A program made the translations under genes and the position numbers. The notes below the pieces were generated by a model, which was not told where the DNA came from, ran no database searches, and saw only the letters and a program-made list of their open reading frames with translations. Below, piece by piece: positions 1,331 through 57,661 of a DNA stretch of 64,000 nucleotides. The DNA lies in assembly GCA_000091205.1 (NCBI GenBank), contig AP006498.2; one strand, written 5' to 3'. How positions within the stretch are numbered: the stretch's first letter is position 1; every line of letters starts with the position of its first letter. Source of the DNA: Cyanidioschyzon merolae (Eukaryota).

Positions 1331-3832
1331 ATGCCGCCGTTGAAGGAAAACGTGATCTTGATATCTAGCATGTAGCTCTAATGTAAAAGTTGTATTTTCG
1401 TTAACTTCATAGCCAAGTATAGTTTTCAGTTCATTTGAGTTTCAAACCTCAAACATGTGTATTCAATTGTTTTGTCGCAGTATATAACAGAAGCGTTCCA
1501 GGAGCTTTCTTTTTCAAAAAAAAAACTAAAAAAGGAAAGTTATGAAAAAGCAAGTCGACGATCCTGGAGGCCGAGGGTCGCCGGCTGCCAGAAAAAAAAC
1601 AAAAAACAGTGCCAAGTCCAGAAGAAAAGGAAAAGAAGAAGGACCAAAGGGGGAAGGGGGGAGACTCTACGTCGAAGGATGCAAGAAAGACGAATGTACG
1701 ACGAGATGGTGGTGAAAACCTTTCTTCATGGCCATATCAAGGATCCCTACAGGGAAAAGTTGCAAGACGCTATCAGAAACCGTGTCGACTCGTACTCCAA
1801 GAGTATTGTCAAGGCGTCGTCAGGACTGATGCATTTGGTACGGGAGATGTATCGCGACGTGACGCACATGGAAACGGTGGAGATTCCGGACGAGTTTTTC
1901 GATAAGAAGTTTATTCGTCAGCTGATGCTTGGTACAGAGGAAGCGCGGAGGGAAAATGTATGAGTGCATGCCCTCCACGAAAAACATCCCTTTTACAGCT
2001 TCAACGGTACTCGATACAAGGGTGACCGGGATATTTACAGCTATGGGGCGATGAAGTACCTCACGAATCTGAAGAATCCTTTGACAGTGAACCTCGAACG
2101 TTTCATGATACGCGCCGTGTTTGCACTCGATCCCGGGCATCTCTCCCAAAGGGATATGGGCGATTACCAATGGCATCACGAACAATCGCCGGCGTGTAGA
2201 TGGGATCGAATTTGTCGACAAGAAGGCGTCAAAAGAGATCACGAATGAAGCTTCTGTTATCCGTGCGGCTATACAAGTGCACCGTGCAGTTTTGGGGCTG
2301 GCGAATCCGACAGACAAGATATCAGAGTTGAAAAAAGATAAGGAAAGATACGATCGTCTCGTCCTACGGTATTTTGTGTTTTTGGACCGAGAGCTCGATC
2401 GCAAAGCGGAGATGAAGCTGAGCGAGGAAAAAAATGAAGAATGGGAGAGACGGAAGGCGTTCCTAATGGGCGAGCGCTTCAACGTGGTTCCGTTGGGCAA
2501 CATCAAGTCACATTTTGTGACTATCGACTCCGGCGTCCTTTACGGCATCATGACTGAGACCAGTCCCGAGTTCGATGTAAGGAGCACAGAGATCACCGCC
2601 GAAACCCGCGAGACGTACTGGAAGAATATCTTCAATTTCAAAGGGCTCAAAGTCAGCAAGAAAAAGGAATTCACTGGGTTGATCGAAAGCGATGGAGTAG
2701 CCATGTGTGTACACTATCTGCGGTTGTTGAAAGATCGTCCAGTTCTGCCCTCGGCTTCGCGCTCGGCGAAACATGAAGAAAACAAACAAGCGGATCCTGC
2801 GACGCAGAAAGTGCAGGAAAACGACTTTGTCGTTGGCGCGGACCCCGGAAACACAAATATCATATCCATCGCTGTATCCAAGCTTGCGGACGATGGTTCT
2901 GACGGTAACTTGCGTCAGAAACACATGCGTCTTCTGAGGTTCTCGAGCGCAAGAGACTAAAGAGAATCCGGAATAATGAATGTGCGGAAGAAAATTGAGA
3001 CATGGAATGCAGGAATAAAGGACCACTTGGAAGCTATGAGCGAGGTGACGAGCCGAGGAGCGGGCTTTCAAGCTTTTCTGAAATTCATGAAAGTTCGCGT
3101 TGCTCATTGGGAGGCGCTGTGGGAGGAGTATACAAAGCCTCGGTGGGCTCGTCTGCGTATGAATCTATACTGTGGGAAGCAGCGGGCGTTCGCGAACTTT
3201 TTCAATCAGTTGAGCGCCCTGAAGGTGGATGTGAGTCAGAGGCTCGTCGTAGCATACGGAGCAGGGCGCTGGAAGACCCAAAAAGGGTGTACACCAGCTC
3301 CAACGACGAGAGCGCACAAGGAGTGTGCACGGCGTTTCGTAACGATACCTGTAGATGAGTTTCGAACATCGTATACACACCACGAGCTGGATTGTACACT
3401 TCAGAGGGTCGAGATGGAAAAGTGCCAGAGGAGCCCTGAAGATATAATAAAGTATGGACCGCTGACGGAGGAGCAAATGGAAAGGAGGGCAAAAGTTCGG
3501 CGACTACTTGCATTAGTAAGTACAACCAATCATGGCAAGAAACGTATGGAATTCGTGAATCGTGACTTTGATGCCGCCATCAATATCAGGAAATGTGCGG
3601 TACTGGAGACGAGAGCTCCAGAGTGGACAAGAGAGAACTTTAATGGACAACCTCTCAAAGTCGAACTATATAAGAAAAAATTGAAACTAGTAGTAGGTGG
3701 ACGTTCCAAACAAACTAGGAGGCGTCTGCACGTCAGTTGGAGACGATTTGTCTAAGGCGCGTTTGCCGCCACTACGGTACACTGCTGGCAGCAACGTTTT
3801 TCATTTGAAAAACGTTTGGCGGCGAGCTGCTC
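1331..3832 (+). mobile_element. Fanzor/TnpB-like (OMEGA-family RuvC nuclease) transposable element, copy A. Boundaries are approximate. The LE is set where homology to copies B-D begins (atgccgccgttgaagg, ~1331). The RE is set where the diverged 3' tail stops matching the other copies (~3832).
   Basis: About 2.5 kb is shared, at an estimated >85-90% nucleotide identity by eye (not computed), with three other segments in the window (17050-19504, 22425-24935, 49575-52062). It encodes a protein with TnpB/Fanzor hallmarks (see the pseudogene entry). Confidence 0.7.
1541..3755 (+). pseudogene. Fanzor-like RNA-guided endonuclease gene, copy A, disrupted. There is a probable frameshift in the A/T homopolymer-rich 5' part (~1560-1620), an in-frame TGA at 1961-1963 where other copies have CGA (Arg), and a TAA at 2958-2960 where copies B and D have TAT (Tyr). 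A putative 52-nt intron lies at 2100-2151.
   Basis: The protein fragments follow in order: MKKQVDDPGG..., then a basic NLS-like run QKKRKRRRTKGG, then MQERRMYDEMVVKTFLHGHIKDPYREKL... A RuvC-I-like motif ([18 protein letters not shown]) lies in ORF 2121..2960. An H/C zinc-binding cluster (YTHHELDCTLQRVEMEKCQ) and a RuvC-III motif (EFVNRDFDAAINIRKCAVLE) lie in ORF 2976..3755; D..NAA.NI is the TnpB/Cas12/Fanzor signature. The assembled length of ~690 aa fits Fanzor1-size proteins. Confidence 0.65.
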
Positions 3833-3870: not shown

Positions 3871-5913
3871 ATGCTGATGCAGTCAGACACGCCTGTCTCG
3901 AAGAGAAGAGATGTCGAAGCTTGTGACACGTTGACAACGGCCGGTGAGGACGCGGACTCGAACGCGCTTCAAGTAGTTTTACAGGGGCGAGCTGCCGGCT
4001 ATACGTGGTCTGACCGTCGAACAGCGCTTGATCGCCTCTGCGAAAGTCTGAAAACGACGACAGCACTGGCGTGGCTGTCTAGGTTTCCCGAGCTGTTCGC
4101 GGTGGAGGGCGCTGGGCGTCTCGGTGTGGCCCTGTGCCAGCACGCAGAGGAACTGCGTCCGTCTATTGTGGCGAGTGCGTGTCGCCTTGTTCACCAGATA
4201 GCGGCATCCTTACAACAGTGCATAGAGACCGTTGACAGCGGCCGTCGTTGTCATGTTGAGGCATGGGCTCGCACGTTCCACGCTCGTGTGCACCAGGGCG
4301 TCTACAGCGCGGTGACAGCGCACGTCACGAGCGCGACTGCAGTCGCACACGCCGCGTTGGAGGCGCTGAATGAGCTGGCAGTGAAAGTGGATGAAGAGCG
4401 TTGCTCCGTCGAGCGCGATGAACACGAACAGCAACAGGTCCAACGAGCGGACGCTGGTGAAACGTCACCACAAGTAGAGGAGCTTCAGACGGACATGACA
4501 GGCGCTAGCTGCAGTCACGCTCGTGCGACCATGCTCTCGGGTGACAGGAAAAAAGCCACGAGTGAGGAAACGGATGCATCCGCAAAACTCAGCCCACAAC
4601 TCGAGCTTGAAGCTGATCTAGAGCATTGGGCAGCGCCGCTGGCAGCCAATGCTAGCAGCGTCCTCGACTATTCCTTGTCCGTACGCAAGCATATCTCACT
4701 CGTTTCAAGGAACGAGAGGAACGCTTCCCTGGATTGTCCCAGGACGGGTTCACCCGTAGGCTCGCACGAGAATGCTCTGTCTACCACAAGTGCGGCTTCT
4801 GCAGACAAAGAGAATACCGAGGCAGGCGGCACGCGAGACAACGGCAGCCGAACGGCGCTCGCCCTGCGCAGTGCACCACCAGCCGTGCACAGGCCTGAAA
4901 CGGCATCAAATGCGCCACTGAATAAGACCGAGGCCGACGCTGCGCTCGTTGAAAAGAACCGAGAACTGACTGCGATTCTACAACAGTATGAGGCGACTTT
5001 AGAAACGTTGATTCAGAGCGAAACCGAGTCGCAGGCTTGCAGTGTTCGCACCAAACTCCTTAACCTGGACACGGAGAACAATCAGTTGAAGGCTGATCTG
5101 CTCACATGTACGGAAGCTTTCGAACAGCTTCGTTCAAGGTATCGAGATTTGAAAGAAAAGCTTCAAGTCGCTCAGGAAAATGAGCGACGAGCGACTGCCA
5201 TCGCCCAGACAGCCTCCGAAAGAATGGACGAAATGGAGCGATACCTTCGGGAATTCAAGCACCATGCCGAACAGAAACTGACGCAGGCTTTTCAGCTGGT
5301 TAGCCAGAGCAAAAACGACGTGATGACCAGGGACGCCACCATTACGTCTTTGGAAAAGGCCCTTGAAGCCAAGCGTACGGAATGCGCAGAGAAAGACGCC
5401 GCTATCAGCGAAGCCATGCACATGTACCGTCGAGCGGAGAGCTCGCAAGAGCAACTGCAGGCGCGTATCGTAGCTCTTGAAAACGAGATGCAAGCGCTGC
5501 GCTCCAGGGCTCAAACTGCCGAATCCGAACTGGAGGTGTTGCGTTCGGAACTCGCAGTCAGTGGGCCCAGTAACCTGCTAGGTGATGCGAGTGCCCCGCT
5601 GGGACCCCAGCTGGAGGAACTCCGCTCCGCGCTGGCAGCTGCACGTTCCAGGGAAGAAACGCTCCAGCGCGAACTCAAAAGGCTCAATAATGAAAACCAG
5701 AGCCTCAAAGCGCGCACCTATGATCATCTGCAGACCATCGAGTCGCTCCGTGCTGAACTGCAGCGGCCAAAGCCAGTTCCAACCCCAGCCCTTGGCATAG
5801 ACGCTGCGGAGGTTGAGCGTTTGCGCGACGAGAACGAGGAGCTGCACCAGCTCTGTAACACCCTTCTGGAGAAACTAGAAGCGCTCGAAGCGAGAACTTC
5901 TGCAGCGCACTAG
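3871..5913 (+). CDS. coiled-coil protein (680 aa). The C-terminal half is heptad-rich and Q/E/L/R-rich; function unknown.
   Basis: A long ATG-initiated ORF. Its composition is typical of coiled coils (LEVLRSELAV, LQRELKRLNNENQSLKAR, LEKLEALEARTS). It starts ~40 bp after the Fanzor copy A tail. Confidence 0.5.
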   Translation: MLMQSDTPVSKRRDVEACDTLTTAGEDADSNALQVVLQGRAAGYTWSDRRTALDRLCESLKTTTALAWLSRFPELFAVEGAGRLGVALCQHAEELRPSIVASACRLVHQIAASLQQCIETVDSGRRCHVEAWARTFHARVHQGVYSAVTAHVTSATAVAHAALEALNELAVKVDEERCSVERDEHEQQQVQRADAGETSPQVEELQTDMTGASCSHARATMLSGDRKKATSEETDASAKLSPQLELEADLEHWAAPLAANASSVLDYSLSVRKHISLVSRNERNASLDCPRTGSPVGSHENALSTTSAASADKENTEAGGTRDNGSRTALALRSAPPAVHRPETASNAPLNKTEADAALVEKNRELTAILQQYEATLETLIQSETESQACSVRTKLLNLDTENNQLKADLLTCTEAFEQLRSRYRDLKEKLQVAQENERRATAIAQTASERMDEMERYLREFKHHAEQKLTQAFQLVSQSKNDVMTRDATITSLEKALEAKRTECAEKDAAISEAMHMYRRAESSQEQLQARIVALENEMQALRSRAQTAESELEVLRSELAVSGPSNLLGDASAPLGPQLEELRSALAAARSREETLQRELKRLNNENQSLKARTYDHLQTIESLRAELQRPKPVPTPALGIDAAEVERLRDENEELHQLCNTLLEKLEALEARTSAAH

Positions 5914-13568: not shown

Positions 13569-15627
13569 TGCACGAGGACATTGTGCCGTGGGGTGATACC
13601 TGGGGGAAACCGCGGGGCGACCCAAAAAATGGGCAGGTATAGACTCGCAATTCATACTGAGTGCACAGGGTCCAGAACCGCGCGAACAAGTGTGTCTCGG
13701 GGAAGCACGCTCGGTAGATGTACAGCGCCAAGCCATTCCACAGTTTTTGCCGAATAATCAGGAAGTTTCTCTGAATGTTTGCGTAGGTCGGCAGCCTTCA
13801 TGCGAGGTTGTGACTATCGCCGCTATGGAACGTGGACGTAAAGGCGGGATGCAGCACAACACAATGCTTATTCTCTGTATCGACACCGGTTTCGGACCAA
13901 AATGGAATGCTAGCAGCTCGCTCGGCTCCTTTTCTTTGATTTTCTCGAACTCGATTTCAGGTGTACAACCCCGGTAATCCAAGTACAGCAATAGAGACCT
14001 ATGTTTTCGAATTTAGAACTAGGATTCTCGGTCTTGTTTTCAGAGTGGCTCTTTCGATGCCTTGGGGCTGGAATTCGTCTCGCCATTAGCATCAATATCG
14101 TGCGCGACGCTTCCGACAGAGTGTTCGTCGCGGAACCGATACCATCATGCGATTCATATGTACGAGCTTGCACTCTTGTCAGTTCCGTAGGTGCGGCACG
14201 CTAAAATCATGCATTCGTCTGGTTCTCGATCGTTCTATTTCATGGCAACTCGTGGGCGCAGCAACCTCCGCGCCTGGATTGACGAGGAATCAAGTCGGCA
14301 TCGTCCTGTGACGACTGCTTCATCAGCTCATCCCAAGGTCCCATTGAAATTGTCACGTCAAAGAAGCGCTTCTTGCGGAGAGTGTACCACTGCTTTGCTC
14401 GAAGGTTGCGTAGTGGTATCGGATTCCATCGGCTCGGGCTCCAGCCATGGTTCTCCTGCCAGTACCTGTTTCATCACGGAAAACATCACGTTCCACGATC
14501 CCTTATCGATTGGAACTGTGCGCTTGCAGCAGACAGCGTACTCGCCCACAGGATCGTGCAGAAGAAGCACGATATCCCAGGGTACGGCAATGTGCGGAGA
14601 AAAGCAGGGCATTGACGGGAGTTTTCTGTGCGCATCGAGCGCATGCACAGAGCGATGGAGCGCGTCCTCTCGTGCTACAGGGCGGTGCCCGAGATGCAGT
14701 GGACAACATGGCAACTCCTGACAACAGCCAAGCGGTACCGCCGCGAAGGACGCACCGAGTCTGTGTACGAAGAAGATGAAAACGTCAAGAAAAATGTTGA
14801 TCAAAAATGTCCTCTGAGCACACAGTGCGTCAATATTGCCAAGATAATGTTTCGGGACCATAGGCTGTATAGATATTCAGCCACACACGGGCGCCCCTCA
14901 GTCTTTTTCGACCGGCCTCCTGCTATCGGTTTCATTTTCTCCCTGCACATTTCGAGTCTGAGAGGTTGTCCAACTAAGCTAGATCACTCGGCTCAGCTCC
15001 TGGGGTCTCGTCTTCTGCACCACACATCCTTTGATATTGATGGTGGCGTTGAAGTCTCGGTACGCGAGCCCCATGCGTTTCCTGCCTCTGGTTGAACTCA
15101 TCAACGCAGGGATTCCCCGAACGCGTGCACTCTTTGTCACTACAGTCTCGTCATCGCCTCGTCGGGCAAACACTTGCTCTCGCTTCTCTCATCTCTTCTT
15201 CTTCGTTCGATGGTCGACGAGCAGAGGGTTTTTCTGATTTTTGTCGAGCCCGGCGAAACCGGGCGATCCAGCATCCCCAGCTGCCATTTCCATACCTTTT
15301 CCTTGGGTTTTTTATTTCTTTGAATCAACGCACTTGGAGCACATCTGCTATAAACCGCGAGAAAGCATTTGATGAGACACTCCCGGGCGTGGAACACACC
15401 TGAGGGAAAAACTGAACGCATCGTACGGGGCTCTCATGAGTCATGGAGGCCGCATCGGATCGCGTCGCACGAGAGGCTAGGGCAGGGCGCATGTCCGCTT
15501 CTACCCATTAGATCCATAAATATACACCATGGTATAGTTTGGTCCAGGGGCAATCTTCTGCCACACCGGGTCTCCGCGCACGTCCGCTTCAGATTCATCG
15601 GTTTCCGCTGAGCGTTCCTGTCCCGCA

Positions 15628-17046
15628 ATGACACAGGAGTCGGTGGTCGAAGCGGAAGCCCGGCTCGAGGCCGGACTCGCCGTTTCCGACAAGGTAATGA
15701 ACTTCTCTCTCGGAAAGGCGACAGCTGTACCGTCGTCAAAACACGTCCATACGGCTGCGGTCTCCGCACAGACTGTCGTCGACGACGACGACGAGGACGC
15801 CGACGACGTCACTGCTACGTCCACGTCTGAAAAGGGACCAAAGAAGCCTCATAAAAGACGAGGAAAACGAGGTGGACGGCGAAAAGGTGCCAGTGAGAAC
15901 GGCGGAGGCGACAGCACTGTTGCTTCGTCGCCAGTACCACAGCCGCTTCCGAAGGCGACTTGTAGCACAGAACTCTGTGGCATCTCGCGGCTCTTTCCTG
16001 AGGGCGTCTACCCGGCTGGCGAGGTTCAGGACTATGTCGGAGACCAAGCTTATCGTACAACTCAAGCCGAAGTACGTGAACGGGAACGACTCTCGTTCGA
16101 TATGATTGGAAAAGCGCGAAAAGCAGCTGAGGTCCACCGGCGCGTGCGCACGTACATCCGGCCTCGAATTCAGCCCGGGATACGACTGGTTGATCTTTGT
16201 GAAGAGCTGGAAAACGCTACCCGGACACTCGTTGAGGAAGATGGCTTGGAAGCGGGTATAGCGTTTCCAACAGGTTGCTCGTTGAACCACGTGGCAGCGC
16301 ATTACACCCCGAACCGGGGCGACGACACCCGACTCCAGCACACAGACGTGATGAAACTGGACTTTGGCGTGCATGTGGACGGAATCATTATGGACTGTGC
16401 CTTTACCATTGCGTTTGACGAGCGCTACGAAAAGCTACTAGAAGCTGTGCGTGAAGCGACCAATGCGGGTATTCGAGCAGCAGGGATCGATGTGCGACTC
16501 AGCGAGATGGGTTCCATCATTCAAGAGGTCATGGAGAGCCACGAGATCGAGCTGGACGGCAAAGTGATGCCCATCCGCTCGATCCGTAACCTAAACGGAC
16601 ACAGTATTGACCGGTACCGCATCCACGCGGGTAAGACGGTGCCCATTGTGAAGAGCAGTGTGCCGGGGAAAATGGAGGAAGGCGAATTGTATGCCATTGA
16701 GACGTTTGGTTCTACTGGGCGCGCATACGTCACCGAGAGCGGAGAATGCTCCCATTACATGAAAGTATTCGATGCGTCGCACGTGCCGCTGAGGATGCCG
16801 CGTGCACGCCAGTTATTGAGTACGATCAACCGCCATTTTGGAACGCTGGCTTTCTGTCGTCGCTATCTGGATCGACTCGGTGAGGAGCGATACCTCATGG
16901 CACTGAAGCACTTGTGTGATGTGGGTATCGTGCAGCCGTATCCGCCATTGTGCGATGTGCCGGGTTCTTTGACAGCACAGTTCGAGCACACGATTCTGCT
17001 GCGGCCGACTGGTAAGGAAGTGCTAACTCGCGGCGACGACTTTTGA
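15628..17046 (+). CDS. methionine aminopeptidase 2 (MetAP2, peptidase M24A)
   Basis: An acidic and then Lys/Arg-rich N-terminal extension (DDDDEDADD...[16 protein letters not shown]) is typical of MetAP2. The pita-bread core motifs are [38 protein letters not shown] and ...[10 protein letters not shown]. It is a single 472-aa ORF from ATG to TGA. Confidence 0.85.
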
Positions 17047-17049
17047 TGC

Positions 17050-19504
17050 TGGCACCGAACACCGTTCGCAGTCGGACGATGCCGACCGTGTACAGTAGTG
17101 GCGGCAACCGCGCCCTAGACGAAACGTCTCTAACTGACGTGCAGACGCCGCCCTGCCGTTTTCGACCGGCCACCTACTACTGCTTCCACCTTCTTCTCAT
17201 ATAGTTCGACTTTGAGAGGTTGTCCAACAAAGTTTTCTCTTGTCTAGTCTGGAGGTCTCGTCTCCAGCACCGCACATCTCCTGATATTGATGGCGGCATT
17301 AAAGTCTCGGTTCACAAATTCCATACGTTTCTTTCCATCATTGTTCGTACTTACTAATGCGAGTAGTCCACGAACTTTCGCCATCCTTTCCATTTGCTCT
17401 TCCGTCAGCGGTCCATACTTTATTATATCTTCAGGGCTCCTCTGGCACTTGTCCATCTCCACTCTCTGAAGTGTACACCCCAGTTCATGGTGTGCATAGG
17501 ACGATCGGAACTCGTCTACAGGTATCGTAACGAAACGTCTTGCGCACTCCTTGTATACCCTCGTCGTTGGAGCTGGAGTAGTGCCTTTCTTGGGCGCCCA
17601 ACGCCCTGCCCCATACGCTACTACGAGCCTCTGACTTTCATCCTCCTTCAGGGCGCTCAACTGATTGAAAAAGTTCGCGAACGCCCGCTGCTTCCCGCAA
17701 TACAAATTCATTCGCAAACGAGCCCACCGGGGCTTGCTGTACTCTTCCCACAGCGCATCCCAATGGGCGATGCGAACTTCCATGAATGTCCGAAAAGCTC
17801 CAAAGTCCGCTCCTCGGCTAGTCACCTCGCTCAAAGCTTCTAGGTGCTCCTTCATTCCTGAATTCCAAGTCTCGATTTTCTTCCTCGCATTCCTCATTCC
17901 CGATTCTCGATAGTATCTCGCTCTGGAGAACCTCAAAGGACGCATGTCTTTCTGACGCAAGTTACCATCAATGCCATCTTCCGCAAGCTTGGATACAGCG
18001 ATGGATATGATATTTGTGTTTCCGGGGTCCGCACGAACGACAAAGTCGTTATCCTGCACTTCCTGTGTGGCAGGATCCGCCTTCTTCCCATCTTCATGCT
18101 TCGTCGAGGACGGAACTGGACGATCTGTCTTCAAGCGCCTTTAGTGTACACACATGGGTATTCCATCGGTTTCGTCTGAAAGTGAGCAACTTTTGCTTGC
18201 TCACTTTCAGACGTTTGTAATCGAAGATATTCTTCCATTACGTCTGGCGGGTTTCGCCGGAGAACTCTTCCCTGCGAAGATCGAACGCCGGACTGATCTC
18301 AGTCATGATGCCGTAAAGGACGCCGGAGTCGATAGTCACAAAATGTGACTTGATGTTGCCCAACGGAACCACGTTGAAGCGCTTGCCCATTAGGAACGCC
18401 TTCCGTCTCTCCCATTCCTCATTTTTTCCTCACTCAGCTTCATCTCCGCTTTGCGTTCGAGCTCTCGGTCCAAAAACACAAAATACCGTAGGACGAGACG
18501 ATCGTATCTTCCCTTATTTTTTTCAAATCTGATATCTTGTCTGTCGGATTCGCCAGCCCCAAAACTGCACGGTGCACTTGTATAGCCGCACGGATTACAG
18601 AAGCTTCATTCGTGATCTCTTTTGACGCCTTCTTGTCGACGAATTCGATCCCATCTACACGCCGGCGATTGTTCGTGATGCCATTGATAATCGCCCATAT
18701 CCCTTTGGGAGAGATGCCCGGGATAGAGCGCAAATACGGCTCTTATTATGAAACCTTCGAGGTTCACTGTCAAAGGATTCTTCAGATTCGTGAGGTACTT
18801 CATCGCCCCGTAGCTGTAAATATCCCGGTCACCCTTGTATCGAGTACCGCTGAAGCTGTAAAAGGGATGTTTTTCGTGGAGGGCATCCACTAGCACATTT
18901 TCCCTCCGCGCTTCCGCTGTGCCAAGCATCAGGTGTCGAATAAAGGTCTTGCCGAAAAACTCGTCCGGAATCTCCACCGTTTGCATGTGCGTCACGTCGC
19001 GATACATCTCCCGTACCAAATGCATCAGTCCTGACGACGCCTTGACAATACTCTTGGAGTACGAGTCGACGCGGTTTCTGATAGCGTCTCGCAACTTTTC
19101 CCTGTAGGGATCCTTGATATGGCCAAGAAGAAAGGTTTTCACAACCATCTCGTCGTACATTCGTCTTTCTTGCCGCCTTCGACGTAGAGCCTCCACCTTT
19201 CAGTCCTTCTTCTCTTCCTTTTCTTCTGGACTCGGCACAGTTTTTTGTTTTTTTTCTGGCAGCCGGCGACACTGGGCCTCCGGGATCGTCGACTTTTTTT
19301 ATAGCTTTCCTTTTTTTTTGGAAAAGAACACTCTTTGGACGCGTCTGTTCGATACTGCGAAAAAAAACTCGACTAGACTTGTTTGAGGGTTGAAACAAAA
19401 ACGAACTGAAAGACTATACTTGCCTATGAAGTTCACGAAAATACAACTTTTACACGAGAGCTAGACGCTAAGGATCACGATTACGTTTCCCTTCAACGGT
19501 GGCA
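17050..19504 (-). mobile_element. Fanzor/TnpB-like element, copy B, the most degenerate copy. Its RE tail abuts the MetAP2 stop codon, tail-to-tail. Homology to copies C and D continues ~30 bp beyond 19504.
   Basis: Nucleotide homology to copy A runs throughout. There is a ~130-bp internal deletion plus frameshifts between 18134 and 18440, relative to copies A, C and D. Confidence 0.65.
17244..19196 (-). pseudogene. Fanzor-like endonuclease gene, copy B, fragmented. N-terminal part is 18606..19196, the middle is frameshifted, and the C-terminal RuvC-I to RuvC-III part is 17244..18134.
   Basis: ORF 17244..18134 reads ...[19 protein letters not shown]...RMEFVNRDFNAAINIRRCAVLETRPPD. ORF 18606..19196 reads ...RRMYDEMVVKTFLLGHIKDPYREKL...GAMKYLTNLKNPLTVNLEG. 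Confidence 0.6.
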
Positions 19505-20032
19505 TACGCGTCGTGTCTCATGACTGCCCGATCCCCCAGATGCGCTCATCGAGCGCGATGCATGCGCTGCGCGAGACGCCTCACCGATCCATGAAGGACA
19601 CGTGTCCGACACCCCGTCTTGGCACATGCGTGTTCGCATCGCACTGCAGCCAAAATAACGTATCGTAGATCGGAAACGCACGTAGAATGAACTCTTGCTA
19701 TAGGTTCTGTCGCTGGCGCCGACGCTACTGCCCATCGCAGTACCGCCCTGACATACAAGGGGATGCAGGGGCCTGGCACGATACCCCTCGACGCTTCTAT
19801 CAAAAGCGTAGCGTTCTCTGCGGCTTACCGTTGTGTGGTTAAGGTATGCATCACTCTTCTCAATAGGATTTTCGTTAGTTTTATTGATCATAAACAAACA
19901 AGGTACGGTAGGATTCCTGAACACGGATACAGGTTTATTTCCTCTGCTTGTTATGTATGCTGCACGGTCGCTGGAACAGTGTCCGATTGTATGGGTGCTG
20001 CGTATCGAGGCTTGTCGCGCGCTCCAAGCACG

Positions 20033-22414
20033 CTACCACAGTGCGCATACTTTCCGCGGGTGCATGGCGGAGCCGCTGCGGCAACGAAACGCTTCAGCAA
20101 ACTCGGGAAACTGACTCAGAATCCCATTCACTCGGTAGCGATTGGGCGCGTGCACGTCCACCACGAGTCCTTCCATGGCATATTTGGGAGTTTCGTTCTC
20201 ACACCAGGTCTGGGCGAAGGCGACGAAATAGAGCTGCTCGGGTGTCCAGTCTGGCCGGATTCTGCGGGTGAGGTTCCATTCCCGGTGTCGGGCTGCCTCT
20301 GTTAGGTGTTCTTTGACGAGTCGATTATAGGCCGCGTACGCAGTCTTCATGCCTGTGAGATCCGCGAGATTCTCTTGCAGCGTTAAACGTCCGTTGACTG
20401 GTCGTCCATTCACTCGAAAGTGGTCGTAAAGATTTGTCATACATTTGGCCCTACGGTCGTATTCTTGGACGGCTTGAGGGCTCATCCAGTTCGAAAGACG
20501 ACCGTGCGCGTCGTAATGACGTCCGCCTGAGTCGAAGGCATGACCAAGTTCATGACCAATGACGTTCCCAAGTGCACCATAATTCACGGCCTCTGGGTAC
20601 AGCGCCGAATAAAAATTTGGAGCGAAATTCGCCGCTGGGATGTTCATGGAATTCGAGAGCGGGTCGTAGTATGCGTTCACGGTGATTGGGGTCATGTCCC
20701 AGAGACTTGGGTTCCGCGGGCCGCCAATCTGTTTCAAGATCGCATCGTTGCGGAACTGCCGACAGAGAAACACGTCGCCCAGCAAATCAGAGCCGTTGAG
20801 GTGCAGCGTATCGTAGTCCGGCCAGCGATCCGGGTAGCCGATGTTGTTCTGAACCAGACGCAGTTTCTCTAGAGCGGCCCGAAGTGAGCTCCTGCCCAGC
20901 CAGGCTCCATCGTCGCGCTTGAGGATCACCGCAAACTCTTCCTCGATGCTTCGGATTAGCTCTACTGCTTTTCCACGAAGCTCTGGAGAGAAGAAGCGCT
21001 GCACGTAGAGGCGACCAAGATCGTCCCCGATATGCGCATCCGCAAGGGCGAGACACTGACTCGATAGATTCGCAAGTCCCCGTCTACCTTCAACAATCTG
21101 ACCGAAAAAGCGAAAGTGCTCCGCCGCAAGCGACGAGTTGCCGGCTGCTCCCGCCATGGCGTTCAGCACGTGCCAGCGCAAGTACAGAGAGAGTTTTCTG
21201 GTCTCGTTCGAGATAGAGCTCAGTGCGACCATATCACTCAAGCGTTTCAAGAACGGGGGCCATTGCACCACCAATGGAATCGCAGAAGCGTTTTTTCCCG
21301 TTCCTGCAAGGAGGCTCTCAAGATAGTTCGTCCATGGGATCGCCGGGGCCATCTCGTGCTGCAGTGCGGTCAAGTTTGTGGGATTGTAGACGGCCCAGGC
21401 ATCGTCGCCAAGGTCTGCTTCTGCTTCTGAAGCCTTGGCCAACTCAGTTTCCCATTCGACAATGTTCGCTGCTGCCTGCATCGCTTCTGCTTGATCAGTG
21501 CCGCTCAGCGTGAGCATGCGACCTATGTGATTCGAATACTCATCAAGAATATCCTTATAGTATTCATCGAGATAGTAGTCACGCGTTGGCAACCCTAGCC
21601 CTCCTTGTTCAATGGTCAGCACCATTACCTCTGGGTGCATGCCATCCGGCAGCACCTCGTACGAAAAGAACGGTCGTGGGAGATTCCCTCCTGGATCGAC
21701 GACGCTGCGATGCATTTCGCCTAGAATCGCAAATAGCTCTGTGGGATCAGCGATTGTCTCTAACTGCGACAATATGCGTCCAAACCCAGATGCGTTCAAA
21801 AGTTCCGAGCTTGCATCATTTGCCAGTCCGTCTTCTCCGCTGCGCTCGATATCCGCTGCGCTCGGTTGTCCGGCCGCAAAGCACGCGTCAAAAAAGTCGA
21901 CCACACGCTGCTCGCTCGCCGTGCGAGAAACTGCCCGCCCACTGCGCAACGCCTGCACCATGGGCAGCAACGCGTCGCTGCAGCGCTCCTCCATGAGATC
22001 CGAGGTGCCCCACCGTGCTTCATTTGGCGGGATGGGTTGGCTGCGCAGGAAACCTCCGCACGCATAGGCGTAAAAGTCCTCACAGGGGTCTTCCTGCGGG
22101 TTTATAAACGCCCTTATCTCTCTCAGTACGCGGTCCTGGGTCTCGTTCGTCCCCTGGGTGCCGCCTGCACCACCAGGACCAGCGTAGCTCTTATTTCCAC
22201 TTTCTCGAGAGTATGAAATAAATAGAAGCAAGAGAAGCGCCGTCCCTATCGCCACCAGCACCAAAGTGCGACGAACGCGACGCCCGCGCTCTGTCACAGC
22301 TTGTCTCGCGACAGCGGACATATTAGCTCCATCAGAACCAACATCTCGAGATCCTGCTTCTTGATCTAGAGTACCGCGACCAAAGAGCGGTGATCTCTCT
22401 GACGGAACGCTCAT
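20033..22414 (-). CDS. M13-family zinc metallopeptidase (neprilysin/endothelin-converting-enzyme-like), type II membrane topology. The ATG at 22412-22414 is preferred as start; the ORF track extension up to 22528 runs into the Fanzor copy C tail.
   Basis: It has a single N-terminal TM (LVLVAIGTALLLLLFISY). The zinc motif is HExxH (NVIGHELGHAFD) with the downstream ENLADLTG (ExxxD) third ligand. NAYYDPLSNSMNIPAANF and the C-terminal ...CALW are M13 hallmarks. Confidence 0.8.
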   Translation of the reverse strand: MSVPSERSPLFGRGTLDQEAGSRDVGSDGANMSAVARQAVTERGRRVRRTLVLVAIGTALLLLLFISYSRESGNKSYAGPGGAGGTQGTNETQDRVLREIRAFINPQEDPCEDFYAYACGGFLRSQPIPPNEARWGTSDLMEERCSDALLPMVQALRSGRAVSRTASEQRVVDFFDACFAAGQPSAADIERSGEDGLANDASSELLNASGFGRILSQLETIADPTELFAILGEMHRSVVDPGGNLPRPFFSYEVLPDGMHPEVMVLTIEQGGLGLPTRDYYLDEYYKDILDEYSNHIGRMLTLSGTDQAEAMQAAANIVEWETELAKASEAEADLGDDAWAVYNPTNLTALQHEMAPAIPWTNYLESLLAGTGKNASAIPLVVQWPPFLKRLSDMVALSSISNETRKLSLYLRWHVLNAMAGAAGNSSLAAEHFRFFGQIVEGRRGLANLSSQCLALADAHIGDDLGRLYVQRFFSPELRGKAVELIRSIEEEFAVILKRDDGAWLGRSSLRAALEKLRLVQNNIGYPDRWPDYDTLHLNGSDLLGDVFLCRQFRNDAILKQIGGPRNPSLWDMTPITVNAYYDPLSNSMNIPAANFAPNFYSALYPEAVNYGALGNVIGHELGHAFDSGGRHYDAHGRLSNWMSPQAVQEYDRRAKCMTNLYDHFRVNGRPVNGRLTLQENLADLTGMKTAYAAYNRLVKEHLTEAARHREWNLTRRIRPDWTPEQLYFVAFAQTWCENETPKYAMEGLVVDVHAPNRYRVNGILSQFPEFAEAFRCRSGSAMHPRKVCALW

Positions 22415-22424
22415 GACACTCTGG

Positions 22425-24935
22425 AAACCTCGTTCGCCACGGTAGCACCGCCACAGCCGTTCTAAGTCGGACGACGCCGACGGTATCCCGTAGTGGCGGC
22501 AAACGCGCCTTAGACAAATCGTCTCCAACTGACGTGCAGACGCGTCCCCGTCTTTTTCGACCGGCCACCCACTACTGCTTCTAACTTTTTCTTATATAGT
22601 TCGACTTTGAGAGGTTGTCCAACAAAGTTCTCTCTTGTCCACTCTGGAGGTCTCGTCTCCAGCACTGCACATCTCCTGATATTGATGGCGGCATCAAAGT
22701 CACGATTCACGAATTCCATACGTTTCTTGCCATCACTGGGTGTACTTACTAATGCAAGTAGTCCACGAACTTTTGCCCTCCTTTCCATTTGCTCCTCCGT
22801 AAGCGGTCCATACTTTATTATATCTTCAGGGCTCCTCTGGCACTTTTCCATCTCCACTCTCTGAAGTGTACAACCCAGCTCGTGGTGTGTATACGATGTT
22901 CGAAACTCATCTACAGGTATCGTAACGAAACGCCGTGCACACTCCTTGTGCGCTCTCGTCGTTGGAGCTGGTGTACACCCTTTTTGGGTCTTCCAGCGCC
23001 CTGCTCCGTATGCTACGACGAGCCTCTGACTTTCATCCTCCTTCAGGGCGTTCAACTGATTGAAAAAGTTCGCGAACGCCCGCTGTTTCCCACAGTATAG
23101 ATTCATACGCAGACGAGCCCACCGAGGCTTTGTATACTCCTCCCACAGCGCCTCCCAATGAGCAACGCGAACTTTCATGAATTTCAGAAAAGCTTGAAAG
23201 CCCGCTCCTCGGCTCGTCACCTCGCTCATAGCTTCCAAGTGGTCCTTTATTCCTGCATTCCATGTCTCAATTTTCTTCCGCACATTCATTATTCCGGATT
23301 CTCTTTAGTCTCTTGCGCTCGAGAACCTCAGAAGACGCATGTGTTTCTGACGCAAGTTACCGTCAGTACCATCGTCCGCAAGCTTGGATACAGCGATGGA
23401 TATGATATTTGTGTTTCCGGGGTCCGCGCGAACGACAAAGTCGTTTTCCTGCATTTTCTGCGTCGCAGGATCCGCTTGTTTGTTTCCTTCATGTTTCGCC
23501 GAGCGCGAAGCCGAGGGCGGAACTGGACGATCTTTCAACAACCGCAGATAGTGTACACACATGGCTACTCCATCGCTTTCGATCAACCCAGTGAATTCGT
23601 TTTTCTTGCTGACTTTGAGCCCTTTGAAATTGAAGATATTCTTCCAGTACGTCTCGCGGGTTTCGGCGGTGATCTCTGTGCTCCTTACATCGAACTCGGG
23701 ACTGGTCTCAGTCATGATGCCGTAAAGGACGCCGGAGTCGATAGTCACAAAATGTGACTTGATGTTGCCCAACGGAACCACGTTGAAGCGCTCGCCCATT
23801 AGGAACGCCTTCCGTCTCTCCCATTCTTCATTTTTTTCCTCACTCAGCTTCATCTCCGCTTTGCGATCGAGCTCTCGGTCCAAAAACACAAAATACCGTA
23901 GGACGAGACGATCGTATCTTTCCTTATCTTTTTTCAACTCTGATATCTTTTCTGTCGGATTCGCCAGCCCCGAAACTGCACGGTGCTCTTGCATAGCCGC
24001 ACGGATTACAGAAGCTGCATTCGTGATCTCTTTTGACGCCTTCTTGTCGACAAATTCGATCCCATCTACACGCCGGCGATTGTTCGTGATGCCGTTGGTA
24101 ATCGCCCATATCCCTTTGGGAGAGATGCCCGGGATAGAGTGCAAATGCGGCGCGTATCATGAAACGTTCGAGGTTCGTTGTCAAACGATTCTCCAGATTC
24201 GTGAGTCACTTCATCGCCCCATAGTCGTAAATATCCCGGTCATCCCTGTACTGGGTACCCTCGAAGCGGAATTCCGCGAAGTTTTCGTGGAGGGCATGCA
24301 CCCGCTCATTTTCCATCCGCGCTTCCTCTGTACCAAGCATCAGCTGACGAATAAACTTCTTATCGAAAAACTCGTCCGGAATCTCCACCGTTTGCATGTG
24401 CGTCACGTCGCGATACATCTCCCGTACCAAATGCATCAGTCCTGACGACGCCTTGACAATACTCTTGGAGTACGAGTCGACGCGGTTTCTGATAGCGTCT
24501 CGCAACTTTTCCCTGTAGGGATCCTTGATATGGCCATGAAGAAAGGTTTTCACCACCATCTCGTCGTACATTCGTCTTTCTTGCATCCTTCGACGTAGAG
24601 TCTCCCCCCCTTCCCCTTTGGTCCTTCTTCTTTTCCTTTTCTTCTGGACTTGGCACTGTTTTTTGTTTTTTCTGGCAGCCGGCGACACTGGGCCTCCAGG
24701 ATCGTGGACTTGCTTTTTCATCACTTTCCTTTTTTTGTTTGTTTTTGAAAAACAACGCTCTTTGATCCCTTCTGTTATACACAGCAAAAAATCAATCGAG
24801 CATTTTTGCTTGAGGTTTGAAACACAAATGAACTGAAAACTGTACTTTGCTACGACCTCAACGCAAACACAACTTTTACAGCTGAACAAGACGCTTCTGA
24901 TCGCGATTGCGTCTCCCTTCAACGGCGACGGGCGC
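22425..24935 (-). mobile_element. Fanzor/TnpB-like element, copy C. The RE tail ends ~10 bp upstream of the M13 peptidase ATG. It is most similar to copy A at the RE and to copy D overall.
   Basis: Nucleotide homology to copies A, B and D. The tail sequence cgtagtggcggcaaacgcgccttagac is the reverse complement of copy A's gtctaaggcgcgtttgccgccactacg. Confidence 0.7.
22510..24922 (-). pseudogene. Fanzor-like endonuclease gene, copy C. An in-frame TGA follows ...YDYGAMK and is shared with copy D. A TAA between the ...FSSARD and [11 protein letters not shown] parts is shared with copy A.
   Basis: The ORFs are 24206..24922 (N-terminus with the MKKQVHDPGG...KKRKRRRTKG NLS-like region), 23305..24144 (RuvC-I region) and 22510..23289 (Zn cluster plus RuvC-III VNRDFDAAINIRRCAVL). 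Confidence 0.6.
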
Positions 24936-25640
24936 TTCGTGTCTAATGCCTGCCAGACAAGGATGTGCGCGTATCGGGCGCACTCTATAGAACAAAGAAC
25001 AGATACTGACCATTAAATCGCCACGAGATAACGATTTCTTTCCCCTCTGCGATAAACGTTGAGACGGGGAAAACTGTCGGTACTTTCGAAAGTTTACCTT
25101 CTAGACGCAAGGTCCCGCGGATTGCACGAGTCTCCCAGGCTCGTGCTTCACGCTCCGCCACTGGCAGGTGCTTTCGTGACATCTGAGCAACTCGTCCGTA
25201 ACGCACTCCACTCTGGGACTTGGAACGGGTAGCCGGCGTCTGGGCGTTGCCCATGATGCAGTGGGCTCCTGGTATATCGCGTTGCGCTGCCGCAGGCACT
25301 AGCTCAGTCTGCGCAGCTTGCAGACTCCTAGAACGACTATGAGCCACGACTCCGTTTCAGGTGAAGCGTTCCTCGGTCCGACGCCCTCGGAGGTATGGCA
25401 AAGCCGTTCAGTCTCCGTGATGCATCGGCATCAGCGATATAACCGCAATTGCGGGTGCTCAAAGCAGGTAATCGGCGCTCGATAGAGCATAAGAATCGAC
25501 CATTACATCCGAAATGATTTATGGGTCATCTAACTTGAGGGTAAGTGCATCATGATGGATGCTTTCCCGAAACCCAACATCCATCCATCCATCCATTCTG
25601 CAATCTGGGATCCATGGTCCACGAAAACGTTTTGTCACTG
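24936..25640. repeat. ~700-bp segment flanking the LE side of Fanzor copy C. It is duplicated almost identically next to copy D (52063-52765) but absent next to copy A. It contains a 120-aa minus-strand ORF (24985..25347) and a (CATC)n run.
   Basis: Direct comparison of 24936-25640 with 52063-52765 shows colinear near-identity ending at ...ccatggtccacgaaaacgttttgt. The ORF MAHSRSRSLQAAQ...GKEIVISWRFNGQYLFFVL is conserved in both; no recognisable domain. Confidence 0.45.
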
Positions 25641-25809
25641 TAAAAAAATCAGCGCTGCCGCCGTTGCAGAGCGCCTCCAAGTTTCGCCAAAAACTCGTTG
25701 CCAAACGAGCGCTGCTATTGTTCTAGTTTACCGCTGTTGTCGTTGTTGTTGCCGTTGCTGGTAAGATTTCGTTAGGGCGCTGGTGCCTCAAGTTGGCGCC
25801 AACCAGGGC

Positions 25810-27087: not shown

Positions 27088-28616
27088 GAGCGTAGGACCT
27101 GCATGACTCCCGCACGCGCAAGGACTCGGCTTTCTACACGACGTTGCGGCGTTGAAGCGTGACGAACGTTCGTTAGGAACGCGTGCCCCCTGGTGCAGCG
27201 ACTTTTGCTTGATTGTACTTCGGGAAACTTGGTCGCTTCGAAACCAGTTGGCGTTGCCGCTTCCTCCTTACCGAGTGTCAAGCTTTGCATCGTATGTCAG
27301 TGTTGTCGACGAAAGGTTCATGCACCACGTACACATCATGCCGAACCTTACTCCTTAAAGAACAATAGGAAACTGCCGATGCGCGATGTCCATGCAACGG
27401 TTGCCGCTACGCCAGTCCCAGCGAGATGGCCACGCTTTCGCACTAGTTCTTGTGAATTGCATGACAATAAAGGCTTTGCGCACGGCATTTTCTGGAATGT
27501 CGCGCAGGCTGCAATACCTGGGCAATGAAGACGCCCAGCGCGATTCGCGTGCTGCACTCACGCCAGTCGCCTGTGTCCGTAGAAAGCTGTCGATGGGACG
27601 CGCTTTCGCAGTCGGTGGAGGGATACCCGAGTCAGCTCCGTGGAGCCATATCCTTTTCAAGGCATATCCCTCGTGCTTCTCTTTGTCAAGTTTCCACCGG
27701 TCCTGTTCGCAGTTCCGTCGAGCGTCCTCGCGTAGAGCGTCGAGGAAAACGTGCACTCTCCGCGAAATGCTTTTCGAGAAACCCAACGCTCACTGAACCT
27801 GCTGAACGAATCATACGAATATGTATGGAAAGCGTGTGACGGTGAGTCTGCGTGGCCCTAGACCCAGGGCAGTCAGTCATCGTATCCAGGTGTTTTCTGT
27901 GCTGTGGAGACAATGAATTGAACCAGGGAAATCCCGGATGCCTGATATGCGTACCATCACTAGAGCAAAAAACATTCTATGACGATAAAGCGTTTGTATA
28001 CACACAGACCTCCAGATGTTTCCCGGCCTTTTTTTGACCGAACCCTCTGATATCCGTTTGGGGTTTTCCCTGCAGACTTCGAGCTTGGGAAGCCACCCAG
28101 CGAATTTAGAGGGTGTCAGGTCCTCAGTCCTCGTCTTTAGCACCACAGATCGTGTGATATTGACTGCACCGTGAAAGTCTGGGGTTCACGAACTCTATGA
28201 GTCTATTGCATCTAAATGAACTCACGTTTGCAGGGATTCCCCTATCTTTTGCACTCTATGACACTAGAGTCTCGTCATTGCCACGTTTGGCAAACATCTG
28301 TTCTCGTCGCTCGTCGGTCTCCCGTTTCCCACTTCTTCTTCTGCTTCGTCAATAGCGCTATATCCCTCTGTTCTCGACGAGACGAGGATTTTTATCGTTT
28401 CTTTTTCAAGCACCCGGCAATGGTAGTCATCCAAGATGTCTGACTTGCATGTCTATACCTTTCCCTTTGATTTTTTATTTCTTCAAATGAATGCACTTTG
28501 AATACATCGGCTATGAGCCGTGGAAAAGCATATGGTGACATGCATCTGGCGTGGAACGCAATTGAGTTGAAATACGATAATCACCCGTGCGTGCATGCAG
28601 CGCAGATACGAAAAAG

Positions 28617-37378: not shown

Positions 37379-37458
37379 ACTGCTCCTGTGTGCCGTCTAA
37401 ACGCCGAGGGCAAGCTCCACGCCAGGAGTCGCTGCAAAGAGCGCTGCCGGCACTATCA

Positions 37459-37632
37459 ACCAACCAGGGCTTCGAGTCAGTGTGCACGCGCTTCCTTGTC
37501 CACAACGCTGATTGATAGCGATATACCTGCAAACGCGACGTGAACGCCAACCTACCAGGGCTTCGGGTCAGTGCGCACCCGCTTCCTTGTCCACAACGCT
37601 GATTATTAGCGATATACCCGCAAACACAACAA
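37459..37632. repeat. Two tandem copies of an ~88-bp unit in the divergent intergenic region between genes 35897..37378 (-) and 38035..39597 (+).
   Basis: Unit 1: caaccagggcttcgagtcagtgtgcacgcgcttccttgtccacaacgctgattgatagcgatatacctgcaaacgcgacgtgaacgc. Unit 2: caacctaccagggcttcgggtcagtgcgcacccgcttccttgtccacaacgctgattattagcgatatacccgcaaacacaac. The two units are about 90% identical. Confidence 0.7.
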
Positions 37633-48975: not shown

Positions 48976-49629
48976 TCAGTGGTACGCTTCTCTTGAGCTG
49001 ACGCTCCCTGCACCCACGTTTGGTGCCTCGAAGGCGGCATTCGGCGTCTCGGCGCTGGCCTCATGTTTCTGTTCGTTCATGATACCGAGCACCGTGCCCA
49101 TGGTCGCAACGCTCTGCTGCAGCGCGTTCAAAGTCGCTCGAAGTTCGGCGAGTTGCTCTTGCTGCTCGAGCCGTTGGCTGCTGATGGACTCCAGTTCGGC
49201 ACGTCGCTCGCAGATCTCCAACTCCAACTCGGAACAATTTGGTAGTCGCTCGATCTCGACACACAAAGCCCGCAGCTCTCGCTCGCTAGCTAACTGCGAC
49301 TCAGCAACGCTGAGCGCCTTCTTTTCCTCCGCGTATTGTTCCCGAAGTTGCTTCACTTGCGCCTCCAGTGTAGGCAGTGCTAGGCAACGAAGGTTGTCCT
49401 CGTCAGTGGCGAGCGCCTGCGCGGCTCTGGCGAAATGCTCGGCCGACTGCTCGAGCGCAGCCAGCGATCGAGCCAAAGCGTCCGGGGAGGTTTCCACTCC
49501 GCGTCCTGCTTGCGTGAGTACCAGCACTTGACCTGCTGACTGTAGGAACTCGTCGTAGCGCTGTTCAAGTCGTGCAGCGATTGCTGTTTCACAGTCACCG
49601 CTGTCGCTAACGGTGTACATTAGTGGCAT
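48976..49629 (-). CDS. Small coiled-coil protein (~217 aa from ATG 49627-49629). Its first ~20 codons lie inside the diverged 3' tail of Fanzor copy D, so the true start is uncertain. Low confidence.
   Basis: Heptad-rich sequence (LEAQVKQLREQYAEEKKALSVAESQLASERELRALCVEIERL). The N-terminal codons MPLMYTVSDSGDCETAIAA are nucleotide-homologous to the tails of copies B and C. Confidence 0.3.
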   Translation of the reverse strand: MPLMYTVSDSGDCETAIAARLEQRYDEFLQSAGQVLVLTQAGRGVETSPDALARSLAALEQSAEHFARAAQALATDEDNLRCLALPTLEAQVKQLREQYAEEKKALSVAESQLASERELRALCVEIERLPNCSELELEICERRAELESISSQRLEQQEQLAELRATLNALQQSVATMGTVLGIMNEQKHEASAETPNAAFEAPNVGAGSVSSREAYH

Positions 49630-52765: not shown

Positions 52766-53050
52766 TATAAAAAATTCTCATCAGCAGCAGCGACGGCGCT
52801 AGGCCCCAGCCGTCATCCTGGCGCCCGCTGAAGGCTCGCTGCGAAGCCTCGGCTGCATCGCAAGCCCAGGTGTCGTTCCGTTGTCAACCGAAAACACTTG
52901 TAGATCGAGTTGGTGCTGAACAACGTGGGCTCTGTGACTCCTCCCTAAACTCTTGCTCGCTTCTGATTGGGAAAAGGTTTGCAGCCTCAAACAGTGTGTG
53001 GAGAACACTAGAACTTAACCAACACCACACCGCCCACGACACAGTTACCC

Positions 53051-57453: not shown

Positions 57454-57661
57454 GACGCGCAGAACAACGCGGACTTGGAAGCGAAGTCGCTGATGCCCAC
57501 TGCACTACCCGTACGAGTCCAGGGGTCTAAGCTGTGACTGTCCGGCGTCCAGCACGAGCAGCGAAAATCGCGAAAGCGTTTTGGCTTGACGCTGGGCGCT
57601 GTGTCCAGTGTGACTGGATCCGCCAACGTTGACGACGCGTGCGCCGCACGTGGCATTCCTG

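Follow-up and report, generated by a model that had tools for sequence, protein, structure and literature searches.

The transposable elements considered here lie in a 64,000-nucleotide stretch of contig AP006498.2 of the alga Cyanidioschyzon merolae (hereafter, the window). Their closest described counterpart is CMe-1A, a family from the same genome that comprises about 150 copies of about 3 kb without terminal inverted repeats; the 5' 635 bp of CMe-1A correspond to TE-N2_CMe, and many copies are diverged (Bao and Jurka, 2013, PMC3627910). The same authors placed CMe-1 in Fanzor1. Their description left the element ends and target-site duplications undetermined and contains nothing on position relative to host genes; here, we define the right end (RE) and show that this end, not the left one, abuts the boundaries of host open reading frames (ORFs) beyond chance, mostly at sense start codons. 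In the TnpB and Fanzor omegaRNA systems (IS200/IS605 TnpB; SpuFz1, Saito et al., 2023, PMC10432273), a conserved non-coding scaffold extends across the 3' end of the nuclease ORF as far as the RE, and the flank beyond it templates the guide. The C. merolae elements have the same layout, but differ from these systems in that the window copies have no associated transposase and that the layout is known from sequence alone. We found no earlier report of Fanzor right ends at host start codons in the literature searched on Fanzor and TnpB; transposons that favour gene 5' ends and mobile elements that donate promoters are already well known.

Three classes of known systems can be compared. Bacterial insertion sequences with outward-facing or hybrid promoters drive adjacent genes, and the algal elements resemble them in having an element end just upstream of a gene, where it would replace the promoter; they differ in residing in a eukaryotic nuclear genome, in that the outward transcript would be the guide RNA transcript, and in that promoter activity is here a proposal. 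The P element, Mutator, Tf1 and Ty3 favour gene 5' ends; their integrases or transposases are known, and they mostly integrate at upstream distances of tens to hundreds of bp, with no strict orientation. CMe-1A-type elements share the enrichment at promoters or 5' untranslated regions (5'UTRs), but lie 0-50 nt from the ATG, with one end only, and with apparent loss of host DNA in at least one case. The TldR proteins are nuclease-dead TnpB-like repressors with a fixed guide to a distant promoter. They direct a guide RNA of the TnpB family toward the 5' region of a host gene, and the present elements would do likewise; in the latter, the catalytic motifs are ancestral and the guide would simply be the adjacent flank.

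Repeat analysis and a four-way alignment revealed one element of about 2.5-3.2 kb that is present in four copies in the window, a gene-dense region with about 55% G+C in which the conserved tail motifs occur exactly four times and in which tRNA and Rfam scans gave no matches. The copies are as follows.

1331-3824, plus strand: Fanzor1 copy A, with a 5'-truncated core (repeat families, four-copy alignment, tblastn); its tail occupies 3722-3824 and the Fanzor stop codon 3753-3755.
17048-19640, minus strand: Fanzor1 copy B, with the 5' limit uncertain within 19532-19640.
22446-25656, minus strand: Fanzor1 copy C (CMe-1A type), with the core at about 22446-24957 (repeat families, alignment, blastn for the 5' limits, tblastn).
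49597-52775, minus strand: Fanzor1 copy D, with a TE-N2-like 5' module and with its 3' end fused to a host ORF.

Copies A, C and D are the three youngest, with 94-96% identity among themselves, and copy B, with about 85% identity to the others and several indels, is the oldest. All four are CMe-1A-type Fanzor1 elements. The RuvC motifs GADPGN, VDEFRT and NRDF(D/N)AAINI are present in the window copies and invariant in homologues, as is the split RuvC triad D484, E656 and D725 in an alignment of 10 homologous sequences. The protein has no match in Pfam, even at E = 10, and none among Protein Data Bank (PDB) sequences by either phmmer or a profile hidden Markov model; the six best Foldseek matches of its AlphaFold model in the PDB, all of them Fanzor1 structures, are those of SpuFz, GtFz and PpFz (E values of 5e-7 to 3e-4, template modelling (TM) scores of about 0.3). 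The Fanzor ORF is disabled in every window copy by frameshift and stop codons. A +1 frameshift, caused by an extra G in CCCGGG (about 2185-2195 in copy A), is common to A, B, C and D, and the intact homologue P0034 reads ALYSGISRNGKW across this point; in addition, A and C have in common a TAA (2958-2960 and 23305-23307, respectively), copy D has a late stop, and copy B has its indels. Since the frameshift is shared even by the diverged copy B, the nuclease gene was already broken when the window copies multiplied or were homogenised. No second ORF besides Fanzor was found in them, a TnpA (Y1 HUH) transposase included, and for CMe-1A no transposase was reported either (Bao and Jurka, 2013, PMC3627910).

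The similarity among the four copies is mosaic, with some stretches grouping A and B against C and D and others grouping A and C (alignment columns at about 975-1000 and 1560-1700, e.g., window positions 2070-2100 in A), which suggests recombination or gene conversion between copies.

The position of the RE was established from the tail. Each window copy carries the 17-mer GCGTCTGCACGTCAGTT, at 3722-3738 on the plus strand and at 17132-17148, 22527-22543 and 49657-49673 on the minus strand, together with an anchor resembling GCCACTACTGTACAC at 3768-3782, 17088-17102, 22483-22497 and 49613-49627, respectively. In metagenome contigs, a scan with the invariant 17-mer matched 120 loci, and some 80 of these, on Cyanidiales-like contigs, have genuine tails. 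When sites were clustered by downstream flank, 28 independent insertions were distinguished, namely the four window copies and 24 from metagenome contigs. In every copy the anchor is followed by a hairpin of about 40 nt with the consensus CGYYGGCGNCGTTCGACTTTNGAACGGCGTTYGGTG, and multi-copy comparison places the RE at the 3' foot of this hairpin, 34-44 nt past the anchor, since beyond it the 28 flanks are mutually unrelated. About 100 nt of tail are conserved in 42 distinct tails, including those of non-autonomous derivatives that share this part alone. Folded one by one, all 39 distinct terminal segments form hairpins, in which differing stems give a like fold (e.g., CAACGTTTTT/AAAGATGTTG versus GTCGTTCGA/TCGAACGGC) and G-U pairs make up 127 of 553 predicted pairs (23%). 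Relative to shuffled controls, the hairpin z-score is -4.3 in copy A (3783-3824) and -4.0 and -3.3 in the metagenome loci L016 and L109; in B, C and D the window hairpins have decayed, with scores of -1.1, +0.3 and -1.9. The varied stems, the G-U pairs and the z-scores fit a structure at the RNA level, namely the 3' stem of an omegaRNA scaffold. RNAalifold applied to the 42 tails recovered the invariant stems alone and missed the length-variable terminal hairpin, and the tail matches no Rfam family. The putative omegaRNA region overlaps the Fanzor stop codon and ends at the RE, with the variable flank coming next, as can be followed in copy C.

22446-22543, minus strand: omegaRNA-like tail of copy C, with GCGTCTGCACGTCAGTT at 22543-22527, the Fanzor stop codon at 22512-22510, the anchor GCCACTACGGGATAC at 22497-22483 and the hairpin at 22482 to about 22446.

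We propose that the right end of CMe-1A would encode the 3' part of an omegaRNA and that the DNA following it would template the guide, as one component of the overall explanation weighed below. A preliminary description of the window had set the element ends correctly to within about 20 nt; for copy C it extended the element to 22425, and the last 20 or so of these nucleotides are unique flank. It had also suggested, from a similar 'gtacacNgt...' flank in B, C and D, that the true end might lie further out than it had been set. This flank is the terminal hairpin itself, and with the loss of similarity among the 28 sites beyond it, an end 100 nt or more further out is rejected.

A non-autonomous subfamily (L004, L026-L033, L052 and L087) has only the last 100 nt or so, from GCGTCTGC... 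to the hairpin, in common with the Fanzor elements. Its tail always precedes one further repeat (...CTCGTTCGGGCTCGATGTACGGGTTAGGCTC...) and so is internal to a larger composite repeat. In one strain, comparison of L039 (571-720) with L109, L077 and L120 revealed a tandem duplication of the last 49 nt or so of the RE, comprising anchor and hairpin, which sits upstream of a kinesin gene.

Adjacency to host genes was assessed over all 28 sites. At 11 of them, the first ATG of a same-strand ORF of at least 150 aa lies within 60 nt of the RE, the gaps ranging from -15 to +46 nt; at another two sites the same-strand start is 67 and 103 nt away. The stop codon of an opposite-strand ORF falls within 60 nt of the RE at three sites, one of which is an ambiguous antisense call at copy D, so that half of the right ends (14 of 28) are within 60 nt of an ORF boundary. 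The null expectation, obtained by placing ends at random and in random orientation within the intergenic DNA of these contigs, is about 0.03 for each class; the excess of same-strand starts has a binomial p of 2e-10, and of 4e-5 against a deliberately generous null of 0.10. The four window copies alone have little statistical power; the preferential location at gene boundaries that the preliminary description had raised from them is strongly borne out across the family (11 of 28 same-strand starts versus about 3% expected). Intergenic gaps free of CMe-1A-type elements have medians of 630-1136 nt, with about 1.1 kb between divergent pairs. Left ends are not similarly tight, lying 33-442 nt from the nearest ORF, and in six of seven cases the ORF next to the left end belongs to a divergent gene, with its start toward the element.

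In the window itself, the four juxtapositions reported in the preliminary description are present at essentially the positions given there, and they involve the following junctions and genes.

About 3824 (RE) to 3871 (ATG), plus strand: junction of copy A with a same-strand start, gap of 46 nt.
3871-5913, plus strand: TACC-domain coiled-coil gene (XP_005537894.1, 680 aa; Pfam TACC_C; RefSeq identity with the same ATG).
About 22446 (RE) to 22414-22412 (ATG), minus strand: junction of copy C, gap of 31 nt.
22415-22445, minus strand: unique host DNA of 31 nt between the RE of copy C and the M13 start codon, where inter-copy similarity stops.
20033-22414, minus strand: M13 peptidase gene, endothelin-converting-enzyme-like (XP_005537897.1, 793 aa; Pfam Peptidase_M13_N and Peptidase_M13).
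About 17048-17053 (RE) to 17044-17046 (stop codon): junction of copy B, tail to tail with MetAP2, gap of 1-6 nt.
15628-17046, plus strand: MetAP2 gene (XP_005537896.1; Pfam Peptidase_M24; RefSeq identity).
49629-49627 (ATG), minus strand: junction of copy D, fused to the host ORF with the ATG within the tail (CACATGCCACTAATG) and no gap.
48976-49629, minus strand: coiled-coil gene CYME_CMP263C (XP_005537906.1, 217 aa; RefSeq identity).

The ATG at 3871 is preceded in frame by a stop codon 18 nt upstream. The 31 nt at 22415-22445 are all that is left of the M13 upstream region, and they occupy the position that would template a Fanzor guide; the same junction recurs in three metagenome contigs. 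In copy C, Fanzor and M13 do not form a translational fusion, as the two ORFs are in different frames. At copy B, the C-terminus of MetAP2 is intact, for its coding alignment with two element-free orthologous regions reaches the stop codon.

The start codons beside the right ends are genuine. The four window proteins are identical to their C. merolae 10D RefSeq counterparts at every residue, and the window ATGs are the annotated ones. The element-free orthologous regions are found on contigs L124 (Cyanidiales; 72% protein identity in M13) and L125 (Cyanidiococcus yangmingshanensis-like; 69%), which have the gene order RagA - M13 - MetAP2 - MSC as in the window and lack elements B and C; the M13 start MSVPSERSPLF (ATG at 22414) corresponds to MSDPSERLPLF in both. 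The neighbours of other copies encode kinesin, topoisomerase III, ATG2, glycerol-3-phosphate dehydrogenase, a bicarbonate transporter, an NDUFS8-like ferredoxin and a class IV aminotransferase, and in those neighbours that have an N-terminal Pfam domain (e.g., kinesin, topoisomerase III and ATG2) it starts at residues 4-24. Most sites have no alternative in-frame ATG within 240 nt; in L090, L072 and L073 the first ATG is inside the hairpin and a later start is possible. The suspicion of mis-set start codons voiced in the preliminary description is therefore rejected, on account of the RefSeq ATGs, the M13 N-terminus in element-free orthologues and the positions of the Pfam domains. The M13 peptidase has only two eukaryote-like orthologues (69-72% identity, both Cyanidiales), and every other match is bacterial, at about 33% identity, which points to a probable bacterial origin of the gene.

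Copy D represents the most intimate association. CMP263C begins in the tail of the element, which makes up its ATG (49629-49627) and at least the first 6-11 codons; the element is certain to about 49603, and the junction falls between about 49603 and 49572. The CMP263C orthologues P0214 and P0215 (35-38% identity, E of about 1e-24) align with certainty from R20 and probably from D12 (DCETAIAAR versus DWEQAVAAR), the alignment starting at residue 9-12, and they carry 17-18 unrelated residues ahead of the aligned part. The copy D junction recurs in five other contigs, none of which has a second ATG, so that the ATG in the tail is the only one left. As judged from these comparisons, copy D has replaced the native N-terminus of CMP263C and supplies its start codon, and the junction has probably lost part of the element's hairpin too. 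A related fusion occurs in P0149, where the Fanzor C-terminus continues in frame through the tail into a host methyltransferase.

The regions without elements also allow an estimate of host DNA loss. Around copy C, 154 + 31 nt of host intergenic DNA are left between the RagA-like gene and M13, versus 1438 nt in L124; around copy B, about 400 + 6 nt are left of a convergent intergenic region that measures 584 bp in L124 and 586 bp in L125. The non-coding DNA is too diverged to align, and host DNA loss is therefore only suggested. These distant contigs, L124 and L125, provide the only empty orthologous regions. Exact-protein look-ups with M13, MetAP2, TACC and CMP263C retrieved no empty site, as each contig either contained the element or was interrupted within the repeat. 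Two Logan contigs, L131 and L134, were considered as transcripts and are treated as genomic, because they end at repeat boundaries like DNA metagenome contigs. Comparison of the insertion sites for a target-site duplication or target motif gave nothing consistent, with short matches being TCGCTGC (copy D) and TTCGCTG (L036). Left ends start near (C)GAT followed by a T-run, and their 5' modules vary, with no consistency across sites.

The 5' ends are modular. A TE-N2_CMe-like module of about 690 bp is present in direct orientation in C (24958 to about 25656) and D (52086 to about 52775); in copy A, a TE-N2-like module is inverted (about 640-1330) and butted against the 5'-truncated core; and copy B has a third, unrelated 5' module (19532-19640). 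In C and D, the module is bordered by short direct or inverted matches, a hint that it may be a nested insertion into the 5' end of the core.

The following explanation seems to us rather probable, if not by a wide measure, when taken as a whole: the RE abuts host start codons, the element acts as promoter and 5' leader, and the adjacency stems from insertion bias plus deletion. At such sites, an element of about 2.5-3.2 kb stands between the gene and the DNA that used to lie upstream of it. As 2-46 nt of host DNA remain ahead of the start codon, the core promoter and transcription start would have to lie in the last 100-150 nt of the element, or transcription would have to proceed out of the RE; such outward transcription would be needed anyway for making the guide. 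The element would then serve as promoter and 5' leader, and in copy D as the source of the start codon too. Of the co-option proposed in the preliminary description, the start codon part holds for copy D; donation of a promoter or leader at the other junctions is what the short remnant of host DNA would imply. The adjacency most likely arises from a bias to 5' intergenic DNA together with deletion next to the RE, which would proceed until selection on the neighbouring gene stops it. Insertion bias or early events are favoured by the adjacency already seen in the youngest copies, and deletions beside the RE by copy D and the shortened intergenic region at C. Selection on homing targets may also have a place, since the elements meet stops as well as starts and do so with the guide-templating end alone.

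A candidate for a promoter element lies within the Fanzor ORF, about 150 nt upstream of the RE, in the form of a (C/T)TATAT(G/A)AG motif (22599-22607 in C and 3658-3666 in A). It is held at synonymous sites, with the Leu codon CTA/TTA in 45 of 46 distinct variants versus a usage of 12-17% overall, and in the non-autonomous derivatives GGTATAAGG is found about 35 nt before the shared tail begins. As a lead, the motif could be a TATA-like element for the omegaRNA or the outward transcript. For comparison, the one measured transcription start in C. merolae lies about 165 nt upstream of the ATG, farther than any RE gap, and public RNA-seq and ribosome profiling data exist for this alga (GSE273424; PMC12989068).

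Several points weigh against the explanation as a whole. At 11 of the 28 sites (about 40%), the nearest long ORF is at least 171 nt from the RE or absent, ORF-based gene calls being such that small genes are missed. C. merolae promoters are otherwise uncharacterised (PMC12770821), which leaves room for very short promoters or leaders, and an ATG-free leader, looked for as a sign of translation scanning from a start in the tail, is present at 9 of 12 start-adjacent versus 5 of 13 other sites, which is not a significant difference (p = 0.11). The argument from host DNA loss draws on one orthologous comparison at about 70% protein identity, and an all-against-all flank search of the gathered loci found no empty site in close strains. 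The Fanzor fold assignment is likewise qualified by a low-confidence model (a predicted local distance difference test score, pLDDT, of 54; TM of about 0.3). One rival explanation is insertion bias alone, i.e., orientation-specific integration at start sites or 5'UTRs through open chromatin or a melted promoter, with the host gene working from a minimal promoter or a downstream start and the element adding nothing to expression. Young copies are indeed already adjacent, the divergent left-end neighbours with starts facing the element (6 of 7) place the elements in promoter regions, and many eukaryotic transposons favour gene 5' ends. We nevertheless consider bias alone unlikely, given that the 2-34 nt left upstream of several intact housekeeping genes offer little room for a core promoter, that the ATG at copy D is itself element sequence, and that stop adjacency at B and L082 is unexplained by a preference for start sites.

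Selection on homing is the alternative that addresses starts and stops alike. According to it, copies persist where the guide target of about 20 nt after the RE overlaps indispensable start, first or last codons, because error-prone repair of a cut element-free allele would be lethal and copying-in of the element would survive, comparable to homing endonucleases in conserved genes. This would cover all 14 right ends within 60 nt of an ORF boundary and account for the tight placement of the guide-templating end only; with gaps of -15 to +46 nt, which are on the scale of a guide, the ATG would fall within the target at many sites, and the neighbours are housekeeping genes. C. merolae is reported to have homologous recombination and a sexual cycle. 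The drive would be inactive here now, however, with nuclease ORFs disabled in all four window copies and hairpins decayed in B-D; moreover, the 11:3 excess of starts over stops is unexplained, and we view homing as a doubtful cause. It is similarly improbable that the adjacency is functional for the element, with every guide in the family templated by the 5' leader and start codon, or by the last codons, of a housekeeping gene. Element-free alleles would then be cut by Fanzor-omegaRNA complexes within indispensable sequence, in a natural escape-resistant homing drive of the 'cleave and rescue' style, and the outward transcript would at the same time serve as the host mRNA, as an omegaRNA-mRNA chimera. 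Chance in a compact genome, where short intergenic regions would put any surviving insertion near a gene, could appeal to the 10% of intergenic gaps below 80 nt in the sampled contigs and to the small weight of four copies in one window. Yet same-strand starts within 60 nt occur at 39% of the sites versus about 3% by random placement, a difference that persists against a 10% null (p = 2e-10 and 4e-5, respectively); left ends are not similarly close, and element-free intergenic medians are 630-1136 nt, which makes chance very improbable. Least probable of all is an artefact of boundaries, by which the assigned starts would be too early or the element would really extend at least 100 nt further out. 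The first ATG in the hairpin at L090, L072 and L073, where later in-frame ATGs exist, and the sequence shared by B, C and D past the obvious tail might suggest it, but the starts agree with RefSeq, orthologue N-termini and Pfam domain starts, other in-frame ATGs within 240 nt are absent at most sites, and the shared sequence is the terminal hairpin, at which similarity among the 28 sites stops.

The position of the RE bears on the role of Fanzor in eukaryotes, on guide RNA transcription, and on the spread and persistence of copies without a transposase. Many natural Fanzor guides would be programmed with the 5' leader or start-codon sequence of a host gene. If the elements donate promoters and leaders, transposon sequence would be required for the transcription of dozens of housekeeping genes in a model alga, and at least one host gene, CMP263C, depends on the element for its start codon. 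These observations are relevant to the annotation of C. merolae promoters, and C. merolae 10D is a genetically tractable system, with homologous recombination and with existing RNA-seq and ribosome profiling data.

In addition to the four copies, the window contains an older trace of a related family.

14846-15149, minus strand: diverged Fanzor C-terminal fragment E (tblastn, 40-49% amino-acid identity).

Fragment E was considered as a fifth case of adjacency and dropped, since the downstream ORF 14358-14861 has no counterpart in L124 or L125. The body of fragment E (15059-15375) and the region 28183-28538 are related, with 73-74% identity in the same orientation; the latter lies about 870 nt from the stop codon of the RagA-like gene and is probably another old remnant of the diverged Fanzor family. 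The remaining repeats of the window are local. A tandem array at 57568-58225 consists of more than 10 units of 47 bp with 81-100% core identity and lies outside the long ORF 54619-57453, and two local duplications comprise 83-nt units 91 nt apart with 89% identity (37457-37630) and 51-nt units 120 nt apart with 92% identity (63828-63998).

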